Source: Chloropicon primus
Taxonomy: Eukaryota
Reading direction: 5' to 3'
Length of the DNA: 64,000 nt
Assembly: GCA_023205875.1 (NCBI GenBank)
Contig: CP060756.1
Span: 62,001-126,000 of the forward strand
The position numbers and the translations under genes are program-made. Positions within the stretch are counted from its first letter, which is position 1; each line of letters starts with the position of its first letter. The notes below the pieces were generated by a model. That model worked only from the letters and a program-made list of their open reading frames with translations, searched no databases and was not told the DNA's origin. Of the stretch, positions 3,101 through 64,000 are shown piece by piece.

Positions 3101-5179
3101 CTTCCCGCTACCTTCGAGGTCAAGCTCTATGACTTTGCTGAGAAGGGAGCCCTCGCTGGTGTGCGAATGCGACTCTATCATGAGCTGAGCACCGTACATG
3201 TACGTCTCGATCTCGTGGGGCTCGAAGACGAACATGAACTCGCTGTTCTCGTGTGCGCCCAAGACGCCCGACATGGGGGAGATCTGAAAGATGTTTTTGC
3301 TCTTTCCCGACCCATCCATGGAGTACCCGTTGTCCACGAGAACCCAGTGATAGGCCAGAGGGATAGGCGTGTTATTCCGGACGACGACGGTTCTCGGGTG
3401 CTTTGCACCCGGCACCACTTCGCCAAACCAAACTTTCCTTTCGAAGGGCACGAGGCCCTTTACGTTCTCCTTGTTCGAAGCCCGTTGCTTGGCCTCCTCG
3501 TCCTCGAACACTGGCTTGCCGTCAACAGATTCGAGGGTGATGTCGAGCTTCACCCCGAGTCCCACTATGGAAAAGGTCTCTATCTTGCAGTTGTCGCAGA
3601 GCATCTTGAATTTCCGAATGAAGTTGCCAGACTCTTGAGGCAAGAACCCTATCTTTATGGTGGTCTCGTCCCCCGTGTACAGCTTGAAGGACGAGGGCTC
3701 GAAGGTGAAAGGCACCAGGTCGATTGGACCACTTGTGCTGACGTCCATTTCGGTGTTCGGCCAGTCCTCCTCCGGGACCACCGTGAACGAGCCCCTTCCC
3801 CCCGAATTCAAGCACTGGAATTCCGTGACCAGGGTGTGCCCAAGCAGGCAAGGGCCGCAGTCGAAGGCCTTCGGCACCGACAAGTTCGGCGACGGCCTCC
3901 TCGCCGCGACTTGAACCTGGAAGTTGCTCACGTCCGTCTCTATCGAAAAGAAGTCGTCGTAATCCGCCAGAGAGTCTGGCATGAAGTACAGCTCGCACTT
4001 GCAGCACATTCCGGGGGCCAGGAGGTTCTTCGATCCAGGGAACTGCACGTTCGCGATGGAGAAGTACTTGGACCTGGGCGGCAAAAACCTCGCCCGCCTG
4101 CTCAGACCGCTGACATTCCTGACCCGGATCTCCATCAAGTACATCCCGCCGAGCTCGTAGTCCAGGAACTCGATGTTGTTTGGCTCCACTTTGAAGAGGG
4201 AGGGCGCCTTCTCGCTGCCCTTCTTCAAGGATTTCGGCACCTTCTTCGACTCCAAGTACCTCGGGTTCTGCGTGTAATTCAGCTTCTGCTTCATTCTTTG
4301 CAGGATCTTGACCTCCTCGTCCCACTGTGCTGCGCTCATCTTCTGTGACAGCTCCTTCAGTCTCCTCTCGGACTCTCTCGCCTTCTTGATGAGCTGCTCG
4401 TCCGTCAGACCGGAGAAGGACTTGTACGTCACCTTCCTCGGGTACTGGTCGAGCATCCTGCTTCTGACCTTCAAGTTGTTCGTGGTCTTGAGGTACCCCT
4501 TGGCCTCGTTCTCAAAGTATTCTATGGTCTTCGGGGGTGCGCTCTTTGCGTCCCTCGCCTGCAAGATGGTCTCCCACAAGGACTGCGGGTTGAGCAGGTT
4601 CATGCTCTCCAGCTTGCCCTCGCTCAGGTTGCTCGTGAGGAACGAAGGCATCTCCGGCAGCCCCGTGTCCCTCCACTGAGGCGTATAGAGCTCGTCCGCC
4701 TTGGAGAGAGCGGCGTCCTCGGCTTCTTTTGCTCGCTGCTCGGCAAGCTTCAAGTGTCCCTCGAGTTCGCACACGTAAGACACAAAGTCCTCGCAGGTCT
4801 TGTTCACCAATTGGATCTTGCCTTCGTAGATGTCCACCACCTCCTCCTCCTCCTCCTCAGGCTTGGAGGGGCTGCCCTCCCCGAGGTCGCCCTCCCCCTC
4901 CTCCTTTCCCTCGTCTCCGCTCGCTACGCTCTTCGCGGGGCTGCCCGGTCCCTTGGCAGGGCTCTCGCCTCCCTCGGCGTCGCCCTCTCCCCCCTCCCCC
5001 GCTCCCTGCTCCTCCTCCTCCGCGGCGGGCTCCGCGAAGAGGTCCGGGAAGGAGTCCACGAACACCGAGTAAATCTCTTGCGTCAGATTGCTGCTGGAGT
5101 CCAGCGACAAGGGGCCCACCCCCGGTGTCTGGACTGGAGCTTGTGCCTCCGTCCCAGTCTCCACCTCCGTCTCCGTCAT
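125..5179 (-). CDS. DLEC1: DLEC1/CFAP81-like ciliary central-apparatus protein with multiple ASH/Ig-like domains
   Basis: 1684-aa single ORF with tandem ASH-type beta domains. The segments 'LAPGMCCKCELYFMPDSLADYDD', 'CLNSGGRGSF' and 'CTNNMCGTYFDTLHC' resemble DLEC1. Confidence 0.75.
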   Translation of the reverse strand: MTETEVETGTEAQAPVQTPGVGPLSLDSSSNLTQEIYSVFVDSFPDLFAEPAAEEEEQGAGEGGEGDAEGGESPAKGPGSPAKSVASGDEGKEEGEGDLGEGSPSKPEEEEEEVVDIYEGKIQLVNKTCEDFVSYVCELEGHLKLAEQRAKEAEDAALSKADELYTPQWRDTGLPEMPSFLTSNLSEGKLESMNLLNPQSLWETILQARDAKSAPPKTIEYFENEAKGYLKTTNNLKVRSRMLDQYPRKVTYKSFSGLTDEQLIKKARESERRLKELSQKMSAAQWDEEVKILQRMKQKLNYTQNPRYLESKKVPKSLKKGSEKAPSLFKVEPNNIEFLDYELGGMYLMEIRVRNVSGLSRRARFLPPRSKYFSIANVQFPGSKNLLAPGMCCKCELYFMPDSLADYDDFFSIETDVSNFQVQVAARRPSPNLSVPKAFDCGPCLLGHTLVTEFQCLNSGGRGSFTVVPEEDWPNTEMDVSTSGPIDLVPFTFEPSSFKLYTGDETTIKIGFLPQESGNFIRKFKMLCDNCKIETFSIVGLGVKLDITLESVDGKPVFEDEEAKQRASNKENVKGLVPFERKVWFGEVVPGAKHPRTVVVRNNTPIPLAYHWVLVDNGYSMDGSGKSKNIFQISPMSGVLGAHENSEFMFVFEPHEIETYMYGAQLMIESHSHTSEGSLLSKVIELDLEGSGKGVNIEVSPALLEFSGTMLFGKQYERNVTISNHSKAPAHFSWKNLPPNVKVFPQEALVPPEDAIECDITVLASDLGRTDITIANDIEHGPQLPLRLVYNVDGPKIKFLAPQIDFGLVEETKEVEASFELQNCSDAQAEFVLKEFDLPSRASKDWVFKFSEDSGVLEPNERKAFVLSCTCSSAQALRTIISCQVMVGNVVCSQQKITVRADVVAPYACLSTTEIDVGVTYLNVAVERTVKIHNLTQLPSHYCWMPEDVLSEDDADKLQILVSPQKGTISPGKTEEFDIEMIPRSTGSCNVILPCELSGMEEPLGLQITTEIEGISVKYEIRGNDNIEVSEDDGKELRIDFGEHLPIGRRASMALIIHNQSAIRAPVDIVFENFGLSQEEILASDQLSHSMGTGNMSEMMLRSSDMVSLVTKVPTKKRKVQMSKTLTAKALETVLLSDSVIGKIDSKLSQDKDKALLREAGNRGVVFLANPMQTTLEPWGSTEFQITCTNNMCGTYFDTLHCEIGGLPCKSIPVKAGVIGSPLALQSQVYTVEKTVDNRSLSINWGDLCVASAAEKRKFWVSNTSSFDMKVDWTVSLLGETDSGNEDTPAFVDFVAKADGGVQVAIEEKGKNLDGELPFKLLPKSLVIPAGSVKGAEIEFAGTVPRVWEAVIRGKQHIQFSEPSEESVGANLAGSFHPFAAPPCEPLGSLRLNLLANTIQPRLDTQGLEQLKFTCHSCVPGDDASYKKSLAFTNLQSTTVMCRIVVEGPYKIVSVVTSYPQPATDKKGVSKVFVIPPSENVDVTLQYEKQKMTSEPEGLFENIDGFLKILYLPQSGPNVLEGAATVCVQEFPMQTKLLYPKIALSQDNISFDNVHPNAPKVIELTLTNPTIVDAMWSITELEESKPRKLSSSSTGTRRLSNRVTVAEKAKPVFEIAPTSGMIRGRGIGQPQQQKITIRFHPQHDLEYKRQYRVRVKKGLGTFFALKGCGSYNEVLESDLALSLS

Positions 5180-58891: not shown

Positions 58892-59192
58892 CCCCGTCCT
58901 CCGCCAAATCCCATCCCACCAATCCTCGTCGAAATCCTCGTCCAAACCGCCGCCGTTCCTTTCGATGGACCACTCGAAACGAAGCTGGCGAGCGCACCAA
59001 TCGGATCGTCCTACTGCTCCCCCTCCCCTCGTCCTCCTCACAACGCAACAACCAATCGATCGGTCTTGATCGATCGCGATCGCTTCGCCATGATCGTGAT
59101 CGATCAAGAGAAGGGCAAAGAAGATAAGAAAGTGAGGAAGCGCGCGCGGTGATCACGTGCGTACGGAGCGGAGAGGAGAGGAGAAGGGGAGG

Positions 59193-61011
59193 ATGAGAGG
59201 GGTTGGGGTGTGCGCGGGGTGGAGGGCAGGGCGCGGGAGCGTCGCGAGTGTCGGAAAATGGAGGGAGGAGTTCGGGACGAGGACGAGGACGACGAGGACG
59301 AGGACGACGAGGACGTGCAAGGCTGCCTCGACGTCGAGGGACGGGGCCAAGGGGACCGCGAGGCCCTCCCTGGCGAGGAAAGCCATCGCGGGGCCCGCCA
59401 AGGACGTGCTCGGGGACCAAGTCGAGGAGGAGGTTGGCGTGGAGCCTCAAGTCCGAAAGTAAGTAACAACAAACGAACAAAAAAAAACGCATCAACATCA
59501 ACCCACTCTGTGGTCGGATTAATGAACTGAGCGAGCGTTTCGTTTTTCGTTTTCTCTGCCACTGCAGGACCAAGATTGTGGCGACGATCGGGCCGGCGAC
59601 GTCCTCGTGGGAGACATTCTCGGCGCTCGCGACCAGCGGCGTGAACGTGGCCCGGCTGAACATGTCCCACGGCGACCACAAGTCGCACGGCGAGGTGGTC
59701 GACCTCGTGAAGCGCTACAACAAGGAGAACAACACGGGCATAGCCATCATGCTGGACACCAAAGGGCCCGAGGTCCGGAGCGGAGACTTGGTGGAGCCCA
59801 TGGAGCTGCAGCCGGGGGAGGAGTTCACCTTCACGATCACGCAGAAGGGCCTCAAGTCGAGGAAGAACACGTGCACCGTGAACTACGACGACTTTGTGAA
59901 CGACGTCCACGTGGGAGACCTCCTGCTGGTGGACGGCGGAATGATGAGCTTCGAGGTCGTCAGGATCAAGCCAAAGGACGTGGAGTGCAAAGTGGTTGAC
60001 GGGGGGGTGCTCAAGTCCCGGCGGCACCTGAACGTCAGGGGGAAGAGCGCCAGCTTGCCCTCCATCACGGACAAGGACTGGGAGGACATCGACTTTGGCG
60101 TGAAAGCTGGCGTGGACTACTACGCGTTGTCCTTCGTCAAGGACGAGCACGTGGTTCATGAGCTCCGGGACTACTTGAGGAAGAAGCAGGCGGACATCAA
60201 AATTTTGGTCAAGATCGAGAGCGCCGACTCCATTACCAACCTGGACAAGATTCTGGAGGCCACGGACGGCGCCATGGTCGCCAGGGGGGACCTCGGCGCC
60301 GAGCTTCCCGTCGAGGAGGTGCCCATACTCCAGCAGAGGATCGTGCAGACCTGCAGGAGGCTCGGCAAGCCCGTCATCGTGGCCACGAATATGCTGGAAT
60401 CCATGATTGACTACCCGACGCCGACCAGGGCAGAGGTTTCGGACATCTCCATCGCGGTCAGGGAGGGAACCGATGCTGTCATGCTCTCCGGGGAGAGCGC
60501 GTACGGCCAATTTCCCTACAAGAGCGTCCAAGTCATGAGCTCGGTCGCAGGAAGGACGGAAAAAGCTTTGGAGCTCTACTCTGGGATATCCCGTTTCGGC
60601 AGCGCGAACAGTGATCCCATCACTTGGATCGACGGCCAAGACAGGACGATGTCGGAGGTCCTTGCCTACCACGCCACGACGATGGCGAATACCATCAAGT
60701 CCCCCGTCATCGTCTTCACCAGGCACGGGAACATGCCGAGGCTCGTGAGCCATTACAGGCCAAAGAGCATGATTTTCGCCTTCTGCGAGAACGAGGCCAT
60801 CCAGAGGAACCTGAACCTGTACAACGGCATCCGACCTCTCCACCTCAAGTTCGGCGCCGACAAGGAGGAGACCTTCGGGAGGGCCCTGGATCTGCTCAAG
60901 GCCAAGGGGTACGTCCGCGCGGGGCAGGAGGTCACCGTCGTGCAGAGCGGAACCAGGCCCATCTGGAGGCAGGTGGGTGCGCACACCATCCAGGTCATTG
61001 AGGTGGAGTGA
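59193..61011 (+). CDS. PK: Plastidial pyruvate kinase (intron 59459-59567)
   Basis: RK|TKIVATIGP, RLNMSHG, DTKGPE, KIES, MVARGDLG, VMLSGE; transit peptide. Confidence 0.96.
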
Positions 61012-61115: not shown

Positions 61116-63003
61116 TCATATGTCCCTTCTACTATATCTGCAAACGCCGTTCACAAAGGTGTGGAGGACAACTGGCTTCTCTTCCACCTCAAGGAGATCG
61201 CGGTCGAGGACAACGAAGTCGCACTTCTGGCCTTTCTGCAGCCGCCCCACCAAACCCTTTGCCCCAGCCGCTTCGGCCGCGTTGCTTGTGATCGCCCGGA
61301 ACCCTTGTTCGCGGCTTACGGCCTCCTCTGGCACGTGCCTGCGTCCACTTGTGGATTCCAAGAGGCTTCCAAGAGGGTCCAGCGGCGCTACCAAAGGCCA
61401 GTCGCTTCCAAAAGCAATCTTGACCCCCCGATCGAGCATCGATTTGAATGGAAAGCTGCGACCCTTCCCCGATCTCACACTTCCTAGCTTCTCCAACATC
61501 GTCCTCGCGTCGTCCTGGATGTGGAGAGGGTTGACAACGGCGTAGATCTCGGCATCTCGGATTCTGTCCAACGCTCCCGAGCCGCTGACGTGTTGTACGT
61601 GCTCCAAGCGATTCGGGTTTTTCGACCGACTGCCAGCTGCTGACAAGATCGCGCTCGCTTCATCAACGGCAAGGTCGCCGATCGCGTGCACAATCGCTTG
61701 CAACCCCCTCCCCGTCGCATTCGCCAGCCTCTCTTGCAGCACCGCGCGATCCTCATGAATCCTTAAGCCTCTGTTGGTCGTGCCCTCGTACGGCTCGTTC
61801 ATCAGGGCGGTTTCGCTACCCAGCGAGCCGTCATAGAACTCCTTCACGCAGCCCCAGCTTAGCATCCCCAGCGAATCTCCGTTCTTCTCGACAAACGAAG
61901 CGAGGGAGTCGTACAAGTCGAGTGGCACGCACGTCTGCACTCTAAGCGTTAGCTCGTCCTGAGCTGCAATTTCCATCCACACATCAACAAGATCCGACCA
62001 GCACTCGTCCGCTGACTGAGCAAACGCGGGTGTCCCCATGTCCGAGACCATCGTCACGCCCATGCTGTTTGCGTAGGCCATTGCTTTCATGATCGAATCC
62101 TTCCTTTCCCCCTTTGATGGTTTTGGTTGGAGGCTCCTCACCATCGCGATGGCCGTGTCCGTCAGAATTCCCGTCGGGCTGCCCCCAGCGTCTCTCTCGA
62201 TCTTGCCCCCAAGCGGGTCCGGCCTTGAGGTTATGTTGGCCATTGCGAGGAGGTAGAAGTTGACAAGGGCTCTGTGGCCGTCCGCTCGAAGGATCAGCAC
62301 CGGGTTGTCGGGCGTTGCTTGGCTAATCCAACCGGCGTTTGGCATCTCTCCCAGCTTTCTCTCGTCAAAACCATAGCCTATGAGCCACGCCCCGGGTTCG
62401 AGATTCGCTGCTCGGTCGCGCACCCTCTCGATAAAGTCAGCTCTGCTGGTGGCATCACGAAGGTCCAATTGGGAGAGGAAGCTTCCTCCCATGATGAGGT
62501 GGGCGTGCGCATCCACGAGCCCGGGAAACACGTACTTCCCTTCCAGATCCACTGCCTCGATAACGGATCCCTTTAGCCTCTCACGAACACCCGCCTCCTC
62601 CCCGACATCTAGAATATCTCCCAGTGCGTTCGAGACAATCGCTCCTTTCCGCACAACTGCCTTCCCCGTGTTCAACGTGAAGTTGAAGAAGAATCTCGCG
62701 GGGTGGTCTCTCGCTTCTGGTCCTCCTCCTCCACCTCCGCCCGATCTGTGCGACACAAACACGAGGACGAGGTACGAGACGCAAGCCACCAACCAAGTTG
62801 TCCACGTCACCCACTTCGATCCCGCCATCCTCCTCCACGCACTCTGGAGCAGCACCTTATATCTCGATGACCTCAAACGTGGTCCGTTTCCGCCAAGTTC
62901 GGGTTCATTGCAAAGATCGCGAGACGAAGTTTCTCTGATGATCACACCTCCCTCGCCAACGCCCTCCTCTGTCGCGCTCAAACCGCCCCCCGAACTCGCC
63001 CCT

Positions 63004-63034
<31 letters not shown>

Positions 63035-63059
63035 CTCCAGCGCCTCGAAGTGACTCCAT
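61116..63059 (-). CDS. Amidohydrolase 3 family (YtcJ/LAF3-like)
   Basis: PGLVDAHAH, DGSLGS, HAIGD, RLEH, FGSDWP; N-terminal TM. Confidence 0.92.
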
Positions 63060-63246
63060 GAGTGTACCGAACGAAGGCTCTCTTAACTCTTGTTATGGTG
63101 TTCAGACATCAGATCAAAAACAGCACACAGAAAAGTCACGAAAGGACGGTAAGATAATCACAGTCAATACTGGAAGCACAAAGGCAAGTTCTCCTTTCCA
63201 CTGAAAGAGAGAAACACGGAGAGAACGGAGACCGGCCCCTACTTAC

Positions 63247-63380
63247 CTGTTAGTTTTCTGCAAAGGTCGTTTCACCGAGTTTGTAAGTTTCTCGGCAGGG
63301 TAATTCGGCCCTACCACGACCATTCCACCGTACATGAACGAATACTTCCGCCCACGCACGGCAGCCCGTACTAACAAACG
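63247..63380 (-). ncRNA. Candidate Fanzor omegaRNA scaffold
   Basis: Directly after the nuclease stop: a 15-bp hairpin with five G-U pairs (63328-63361), a GGTCGT/ACGACC multiloop, and a closing TGTTAGT/ACTAACA stem. Confidence 0.7.
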
Positions 63381-63399
63381 TATGTGCAACCCTGAGGAG

Positions 63400-63999
63400 T
63401 TACACACTTTTTGGTTGACGCAAGTGCTTCAGGAGGACGTTGCGTGCCCCGTTCACATCCCGACCGCACTTGAAGCCACACTTCTGGCACTTGTACACCT
63501 CTGCTCCACCCAGGTTCTTCTTGATGTGTCCGCACCTGCCACAGGTCTTGGAGGTGTACTCCTCCGTCACGATCGCCAGCTCACTGCCGTGCAAGAGCAC
63601 CTTGGAAGCCAAGAACGTTCTGAACGCATAGTGCCTCAACGTCAAGAGCGTGCGAGCCGTCTTCTTCCTGATCACTCGGCGTCTCCCGTTGTTGTTCTTC
63701 TTCACCATGTCTTGGGACTTGAACTCCGGGAGGAGGATTGTGTCGAACCTCCTGCATAGATCGTTGGCTACCTTTTTGTGAAGCTCGTTCGTCAGACCTC
63801 GAAGTTTCTCCATGCAGGCGTATTGCTGTCTCTTCAAGTCGCGGCGGTCGAGGTAAGGGAGCTTCACCTTTGGGTCTTTGCGCTCGGAAATGATCTCATC
63901 AATCCTCCAGCAGAGGTTGAACAGCCTCGCGAAGCCTCGCTCGCCCTTGGCATACTCCCCGACGCCTTCTTGCGGCGAGTACGACGTCTGAAAGGTCCT
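63400..63999 (-). CDS. Fanzor2/TnpB-like RuvC RNA-guided endonuclease, 5'-truncated by the window edge
   Basis: Frame open to the edge: RTFQTSYS (post RuvC-I), LHKKVANDL, LLPEF, HYAFR, VTEEYTSKTCGRC, CQKC, RDVNGARN. Confidence 0.92.
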   Translation of the reverse strand, partial: RTFQTSYSPQEGVGEYAKGERGFARLFNLCWRIDEIISERKDPKVKLPYLDRRDLKRQQYACMEKLRGLTNELHKKVANDLCRRFDTILLPEFKSQDMVKKNNNGRRRVIRKKTARTLLTLRHYAFRTFLASKVLLHGSELAIVTEEYTSKTCGRCGHIKKNLGGAEVYKCQKCGFKCGRDVNGARNVLLKHLRQPKSV

Positions 64000-64000
64000 G

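Follow-up and report, generated by a model that had tools for sequence, protein, structure and literature searches.

The Fanzor2 gene and its surroundings

At the right-hand edge of the analyzed stretch of Chloropicon primus DNA (64,000 nucleotides, hereafter the window) lies the 3′ part of a Fanzor2 gene, followed on the same strand by a structured region and the end of a transposon.

63400..64000, minus strand: 3′ part of the Fanzor2 ORF (frame 63400-63999, open at its 5′ end), running off the window

The 199-aa fragment encoded in the window matched the PF07282 profile (E 9e-19) and the guided_TnpB profile (E 9e-19, which is below the cutoff on a fragment of this length), and a PDB search placed 9b0l on top (E 5e-17). 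Two catalytic-type residues, E147, located six residues ahead of the zinc finger, and D181, are both present, and the ORF has the TnpB-like RuvC domain and zinc finger of Fanzor2 and pro-Fanzor nucleases. The DPG motif falls just beyond the window edge and is present in the family proteins that are 97–99% identical to the ORF, the glutamate/zinc finger arrangement being in place. Among 674 candidates, 163 were longer homologues, and the top four (97–99% identical) belong to a C. primus family annotated as 'putative IS605 transposase'. These proteins appear as Fanzor in the tables of Yoon et al., 2023 (PMC10711439), whose text describes the C. primus Fanzor2* elements, of the same protein family, as non-autonomous, with degenerate terminal inverted repeats (TIRs) and a variable 5-nt target site duplication (TSD). 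A search for Chloropicon in the supplement of PMC10530073 gave no match. According to the genome paper (PMC6731263), the family has 25 annotated members and the alga is mostly diploid. The unfused full-length members listed have 686–746 aa and include 723-aa proteins, and two gene models (P0004 and P0121) join a C. primus Fanzor to unrelated C-terminal sequence, which in P0121 is a SET-domain protein.

The open frame of an Amidohydrolase_3 gene on the same strand (61116-63059, minus) has its first ATG 32 nt downstream of the element end, and a pyruvate kinase-like gene (59157-61011, plus), which we named from its presumed motif, contains a 109-nt GT-AG intron at 59459-59567.

Contigs from 4 of the 20 listed sequencing runs were compared with the window: X1, which is DNA-like, and X3, X4 and X6 (runs X12-X17, with small word shares, were not used). 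The label 'RNA?' on the latter three is an automated guess; we infer that they are RNA from the intergenic flank, which is nearly or wholly uncovered in them, X6 being patchy over the amidohydrolase gene. No second copy of the element was found within the 64-kb window. A second Fanzor subfamily, ∼8% divergent over 63360-63646 and with roughly four to six copies by depth, retains the nexus described below, diverges from the window scaffold at 63360 and apparently has a different first stem-loop. The window allele at 63517/63519 is missing from X3 and mostly from X4 and is dominant in X6, and the window letters at 63155 (in the region 63152-63155) were not seen in the contigs of the runs compared.

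A probable folded RNA downstream of the ORF

A preliminary description, made from the sequence alone, had proposed that 63247-63380 encodes a folded omegaRNA scaffold on the minus strand. All of the sequences that it quoted lie where it had placed them. The structural features of the region are as follows.

63382..63407, minus strand: 11-bp hairpin over the stop codon, likely the 5′ part of the RNA (pair probability 0.9–1.0, z −4.59)
63367..63380, minus strand: nexus hairpin with a 3-bp stem, whose loop UUGUUAGU (63377-63370) is the putative pseudoknot 5′ strand
63325..63364, minus strand: long stem-loop, 18 bp in the predicted fold, with seven G-U/U-G pairs and no mismatch
63293..63316, minus strand: second stem-loop with a GGUAGGG/CCCUGCC core (pair probability ∼1.0)
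63265..63321, minus strand: possible three-way junction of the preliminary description (pair probability 0.01–0.07 as RNA)
63283..63288, minus strand: loop sequence ACUUAC, able to pair with the donor GUAAGU and perhaps to mask it
63247..63254, minus strand: ACUAACAG, putative pseudoknot 3′ strand and final scaffold bases (by covariation; the X3, X4 and X6 contigs stop at its last base, 63247)

The minus-strand RNA of 63247-63380 folded with −52.5 kcal/mol (z −4.27; none of 200 shuffles equally stable), compared with −33.9 (z −1.71; 12 of 200 shuffles equal) for the plus strand and a z of −2.34 (3 of 200) with DNA parameters. A strand difference this large was seen in 11 of the 477 134-nt tiles of the window. 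Among 372 strand-tiles of comparable GC in the 64 kb, one folded equally well. Thus, the strand preference claimed at the outset was borne out, whereas the three-way junction also appears in the plus-strand and DNA folds and thus lacks strand specificity. The 15-bp stem with five G-U pairs was recovered (63361-63347/63342-63328) and extends to the 18 bp given above; seven wobbles together with no A-C mismatch have a chance of ∼0.008 under strand-neutral decay. Two hairpins had been placed inside a GGUCGU/ACGACC helix. One of them, GGUAGGG/CCCUGCC, is firm, whereas the other, CCGAG/CUCGG, has a probability of 0–0.07 when 63415-63227 is folded; the two have 63295-63294 in common and cannot both form in full, and the enclosing helix itself reaches 0.01–0.07 on the same stretch. 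The loop 6-mer ACUUAC, which we take to resemble the 5′ end of U1 snRNA, occurred in 1180 of 20 000 shuffles (P 0.06).

With regard to its extent, a domain of ∼135 nt had been described. Its 3′ end at 63247 was retained, whereas the stop-codon hairpin (63407-63382) had been missed. A hairpin of different sequence occupies the same place in three relatives (L001-L003, see below), and the stretch 63407-63247 that includes it has a z of −5.21; the predicted fold suggests that this hairpin likely extends the RNA to ∼63407. A structured region at and after the ORF end on the coding strand is what TnpB and Fanzor2 omegaRNAs have. An Rfam search of the scaffold returned three matches at chance level (E 3.4–9.3).

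A conserved pseudoknot and the 3′ end of the probable scaffold

The preliminary description closed the domain by pairing UGUUAGU with ACUAACAG. The pairs covary, but UGUUAGU lies in the loop of the 3-bp nexus hairpin (63380-63367), and the pairing is therefore a pseudoknot; the hairpin has a probability of 0.82–0.84 when the pseudoknot strands are constrained unpaired. A metagenome scan yielded three relatives (L001-L003; 51–56% identity) among 94 pattern matches. In a structure-blind alignment of these with the window, two blocks align, namely the small hairpin and the last eight bases. The hairpin loop and the final bases pair in 42 of 44 cells, compared with 26–48% in slid controls, and 5 of 11 pairs are changed on both sides; 2 of 500 shuffles scored as high, with four sequences only.

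A further 6 loci came from viral contigs and 80 from genome contigs (34–51% identity; the best 80 of 134 for the latter). Among 89 stretches with a C-terminal match, 71 ends were set from copy-to-copy divergence alone, ignoring structure. Bases −7 to −3 from these ends pair with the hairpin loop in 61 of the 71 relatives, and in 27 and 32 at offsets of plus or minus one and 0–9 at offsets of two or more; it should be noted that the cyanobacterial loci are mostly near-identical, so that 61 relatives do not amount to 61 independent events. In a hand-picked alignment of 18 rows (A5), all 72 cells over four columns pair, although this alignment leans to structure, as L081, L087 and L009 were left out for want of a strict upstream complement; L003 was missed by the strict pseudoknot search because of a C-A mismatch and a shifted stem. 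The window fits the register of its relatives when its scaffold ends at 63247, and its pseudoknot strand also sits in the register of ISXfa1, whose tested scaffold end is GAACGG. The nexus pseudoknot has previously been described for ISXfa1, IStrons (10.1101/2023.11.20.567912) and ApmFz2 (PMC11832414), and pairing of the nexus loop with the last scaffold bases was found here as in other TnpB/Fanzor2 omegaRNAs. On the basis of covariation and register, the helix said to close the domain is the pseudoknot conserved in TnpB and Fanzor2 RNAs, and both the scaffold assignment and the 3′ end at 63247 that were first proposed stand: judged from the fold and the pseudoknot register, the minus strand of 63407-63247 very likely encodes the omegaRNA scaffold of a C. 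primus Fanzor2* transposon.

Several features of the relatives were observed in addition. In L003, a related Fanzor2 on a contig resembling a giant virus, the left end is a 78-nt perfect inverted copy of the omegaRNA region and is present twice (repeats at 749-826, 1335-1412 and 3316-3393); together with a 247-nt direct repeat, this possibly reflects another route of capture or end duplication. Frames overlapping the Fanzor N-terminus in L001 (660-1217) and L002 (1303-1872), read by eye, resemble fragments of the IS607 serine transposase TnpA; both loci end in GG, and the N-terminus of the C. primus Fanzor retains a stretch similar to these frames. Scanning viral contigs with the window protein and with alignment A2 gave no relative, and neither the scaffold end nor the outer terminus had an exact counterpart there.

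The mobile element ends 156 nt beyond the scaffold

63091..63246, minus strand: internal right-end segment of the transposon, 156 nt, unstructured (fold z +0.75)
63091..63098, plus strand: right terminus of the transposon, TGTTATGG (loose contig ends; insertion rows 49, 94 and 201)

Loose contig ends occur at 63087-63091 in all four runs. In Supplementary Data 8 of Lemieux et al., 2019 (PMC6731263), 3 of the 10 rows longer than 400 characters (rows 49, 94 and 201) are the C. primus Fanzor element, all of them heterozygous insertions of 2.66–2.71 kb. In rows 49 (2707 bp) and 94 (2664 bp), the sequence leads from TGTTATGG across the entire segment to the scaffold, as compared by eye with the window. 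Row 201 (2664 bp) instead opens with the left end, which lies beyond the window and begins TGTTGG; its start codon follows near base 175, as counted by eye. The first 400 characters of each row are visible, which never gives both ends of one copy, and 12 of the 20 supplementary files were searched. The length of row 201 leaves 727 codons when the segment is included, which fits the 723-aa proteins, and 779 when it is excluded; because 779 exceeds the size range of the listed members, the segment belongs to the element. The mobile unit ends at 63091. Thus, the first guide bases would be internal to the element and common to its copies.

Copy number and sequence comparison agree with this. In X1 (single-copy depth 109), the ORF reached ∼37 times and the scaffold, counted with the variant subfamily, ∼39 times the single-copy depth; at 63152-63155, past the scaffold, it was also ∼39 times, a match that is suggestive only, as other points of the segment gave 0–192 times where short contigs were dropped or overlapped. 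At least four variants cross 63247 into identical sequence (the window, record 20 of X4, record 29 of X6 and two X1 contigs). The preliminary description had expected conservation among copies to stop near 63247-63246 and had taken GUAAGUAGGGGCCGGU as a flanking, locus-specific guide; instead, the copies remain conserved over the 156 nt past 63246, down to 63091, an outcome that this description had itself named as counting against it, and variable continuations after the scaffold were seen only in RNA-like contigs. The usual omegaRNA arrangement, in which the scaffold ends at the transposon end and the variable flank serves as guide, was thus not found here. Between 63232 and 63401 no variant of at least 5% was listed; the ORF had 26 such rows and the outer segment 5, a contrast weakened by the divergent subfamily, which fails to align over most of the stretch. 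Two other views of the segment were rejected: an element ending at 63247 and nested in a separate repeat was dropped on the depth and the published insertions, and an LTR was ruled out by the different sequence of the left end.

The ends TGTTGG (left) and TGTTATGG (right) form short, degenerate TIRs, as in Fanzor2*. The hallmarks of IS607 elements (a serine transposase and dinucleotide ends, without TIR or TSD) were not found; by its length the element has room for the Fanzor only, and its termini are TGTT. Rows 49 and 94 carry ∼25 nt ahead of the terminus and row 201 carries 3 nt; the former in row 49 resembles the window flank 63071-63090. The additional ∼25 nt could come from imprecision of the caller, a deletion in the empty allele or a duplication longer than 5 nt. 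TATGG, given in a review as the CryptonS end motif (PMC13565253), occurs at 63094-63098 (plus), 3 nt inside the terminus, and also ahead of the left ends in L003, probably by chance.

A splice-donor motif at the scaffold/guide junction

63241..63246, minus strand: GTAAGT, a perfect match to the 5′ splice-site consensus at the scaffold/guide junction
63227..63246, minus strand: candidate unspliced, element-encoded 20-nt guide, with no listed variant among copies in its first 15 nt

The junction reads CAG/GTAAGT and is the sole AGGTAAGT among the 8993 AG of the 64-kb window. The hexamer also opens the 109-nt intron of the pyruvate kinase-like gene; removal of this intron gives RKTKIVATIGP, which we take to be the conserved pyruvate kinase motif, and suggests that GTAAGT is used as a donor. 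The main contigs of the RNA-like runs X3, X4 and X6 all stop at 63247. X3 and X4 go on from there into three unrelated sequences, one of them common to both, and X6 has no long continuation, so that the donor consensus at 63246 coincides with a branch point of transcripts as in a spliceosomal intron. Contigs entering the segment were 18, 7.5 and 8.3 times shallower, although contig depth can only hint at transcript proportions. Splicing would be the simplest account of this branching.

None of the three continuations is present in the 64-kb window, the joint search at the locus listed none in the scaffold or segment, and a comparison by eye of the RNA continuations with the outer flanks gave no match. 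A pyrimidine tract with CAG at 63203-63201 was not seen used as an acceptor, and the corresponding 46-nt intron (63246-63201) was dropped, as no joint supports it. An exact intron from the donor to the AG at 63090-63089, presumably Introner-like, would restore a flank guide; it was discarded because AG is absent from the 63091 flank in X3 and X4 and from row 94. AG follows the terminus in the window copy and in several X1, X3 and X6 contigs, which is not clearly above chance (three unique AG branches, P ∼0.04, biased data). The fused models P0004 and P0121 were counted for splicing, but they join at the ORF end rather than at 63246. The loose ends were used as listed, and four further rows are probably from X1, so that some DNA copies might end at 63247. 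Elsewhere in the window, no 12-nt match to the candidate guide 63227..63246 turned up, even with one mismatch allowed.

Possible sources of the guide

The data show the fold, the covariation of the pseudoknot, an element in many copies that ends in DNA at 63091, a donor motif at the junction and contigs that branch at 63247. Our preferred reading, to which we would give a little less than an even chance, is that the scaffold ends 156 nt inside the element at the donor and that most transcripts are spliced to a downstream host exon, which would become a copy-specific guide; taken as a whole, the spliced-guide reading deserves a somewhat more cautious estimate. An IS607-type Fanzor2 would have come to lie within a short-TIR element, losing the serine transposase, and the scaffold would thereby have been separated from the flanking DNA. 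Transcription would proceed through the ORF and the scaffold, and the spliceosome would remove the 156-nt end plus some flank. The Fanzor is predicted to bind the pseudoknotted scaffold and to use the next 15–20 nt, the start of the exon, as guide; the predicted target is the host-exon start close to each copy, preceded by a short TAM whose last bases are the acceptor AG. A break at this target, repaired from the filled homologue in a diploid alga, could re-copy or keep the element. A mollusc Fanzor2 has a TAG TAM. The Fanzor2 TAMs reported in PMC13565253 and PMC11832414 are 3 nt long and G-rich. The weakness of this reading is that a flank-derived guide matches both filled and empty alleles, so that cutting next to the element itself would be expected as long as the TAM is the same. 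In its widest form, this proposal is of an OMEGA system programmed by the spliceosome, in which the scaffold is an exon ending at a 5′ splice site and whether the RNA is spliced or not decides between a locus-specific guide and a fixed internal one, possibly gated by pairing of the scaffold loop with the donor; we put it forward tentatively, with a little less confidence again.

The main rival is that the guide is fixed and internal. The unspliced sequence GUAAGUAGGGGCCGG would be the frozen entry site of the IS607 element in a TIR element, and the nuclease would cut Fanzor-free copies, thus homing within the transposon family, with splicing as a by-product or an off-switch of targeting. Unspliced contigs do span the junction in X4 and X6, at least four variants have the same first 15 nt, the loop ACUUAC is able to pair with the donor, and self-cutting would not be required given a TAM other than CAG, as has been demonstrated for ISXfa1. 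We nevertheless regard this as rather unlikely, since a depth of 39 against 37–39 copies leaves little room for Fanzor-free copies in the X1 sample, the window offers no target and the viral contigs no match to the terminus, and the ACUUAC match has a P of 0.06. It is less probable still that the scaffold is a relic, inherited with a recently active element after its guide function lapsed, while the donor does no more than shape the 3′ end of the mRNA or soften the effect of insertions. Copies that are 97–99% identical have had little time for decay, and neither source of a guide gives a clear benefit, but the catalytic motifs are intact and variants are lacking in 63232-63401, a point that the misaligned subfamily weakens.

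The preliminary description assumed the canonical model, with the flank as guide; most copies would then have to end at 63247, the window copy and a few siblings lying within another repeat. The three different continuations at 63245-63247 would fit this, as would the cyanobacterial relatives, which end precisely so, the scaffold end, which also reads CTGTTAG on the plus strand, and the placing of TIR and TSD within Fanzor2* scaffolds in the text of Yoon et al., 2023 (PMC10711439). However, each of the three published insertions either contains the outer segment or requires it, the depth of the segment matches that of the ORF and scaffold, and the continuations were seen in RNA-like runs only, which leaves this model very improbable. 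It is scarcely credible that the hairpins mark the end of the DNA or arose by chance, instead of belonging to an RNA: the strand does fold as DNA as well (z −2.34), but the seven G-U pairs without an A-C mismatch (P ∼0.008), the conserved pseudoknot register and the distance of 156 nt between the structure and the DNA end all argue against it.

Comparison with known systems and implications

The element belongs to a known family, Fanzor2*, and its arrangement, with the scaffold ending inside the element at a splice donor, departs from the family rule. The text of Yoon et al., 2023 (PMC10711439) makes no mention of the RNA described here, of a 156-nt gap between scaffold and terminus or of a splice site, although its figures 2, 4A and S3 may show the ends; its statement that TIR and TSD appear to belong to Fanzor2* scaffolds is not borne out by the window element. 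Similar to the omegaRNAs of IS607 TnpB, pro-Fanzor and Fanzor2 described for ISXfa1 and ApmFz2 (9B0L; PMC11832414), the nexus loop pairs with the last scaffold bases, long stem-loops follow the nexus, and the scaffold ends in G two bases past the pseudoknot strand. In those systems, however, it ends at the transposon boundary and the contiguous flank is the guide, whereas the window scaffold ends internally, and unlike in IS607 systems no intact serine transposase fits the 2.66 kb of the element. IStrons likewise have a splice site at the scaffold/guide junction, where folding could compete with splicing (10.1101/2023.11.20.567912), as it might here; in contrast with them, the window has a spliceosomal 5′ site, and the scaffold would remain in the exon and gain a new guide. 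The right (TGTTA) and left (TGTTG) termini both fit the TGTNR pattern of Ginger2/TDD elements, among which TDD-4 and TDD-5 make 5-bp TSDs (PMC2836005); as the pattern alone was compared and the long TIRs of that group were not seen in the window element, this is a lead only. In the literature searched, with most subscription papers outside its scope, we found neither a spliceosomal splice site at a Fanzor scaffold end nor an internal guide.

In the TnpB and Fanzor systems compared from the literature, the guide is the DNA touching the transposon end. With a scaffold that lies 156 nt inside the element, this rule cannot hold here. If the internal guide (GUAAGUAGGGG) is true, the element would be a snapshot of eukaryotic TIR transposons capturing an IS607 Fanzor2; if the spliced guide is true, it would reveal a eukaryote-specific route to guides via the spliceosome. 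The scaffold boundaries are now fixed for tests of the C. primus nuclease, and under either reading the role of Fanzors in cut-and-paste transposons could be put to the test on the telomere-to-telomere genomes and RNA-seq data already published for the alga.
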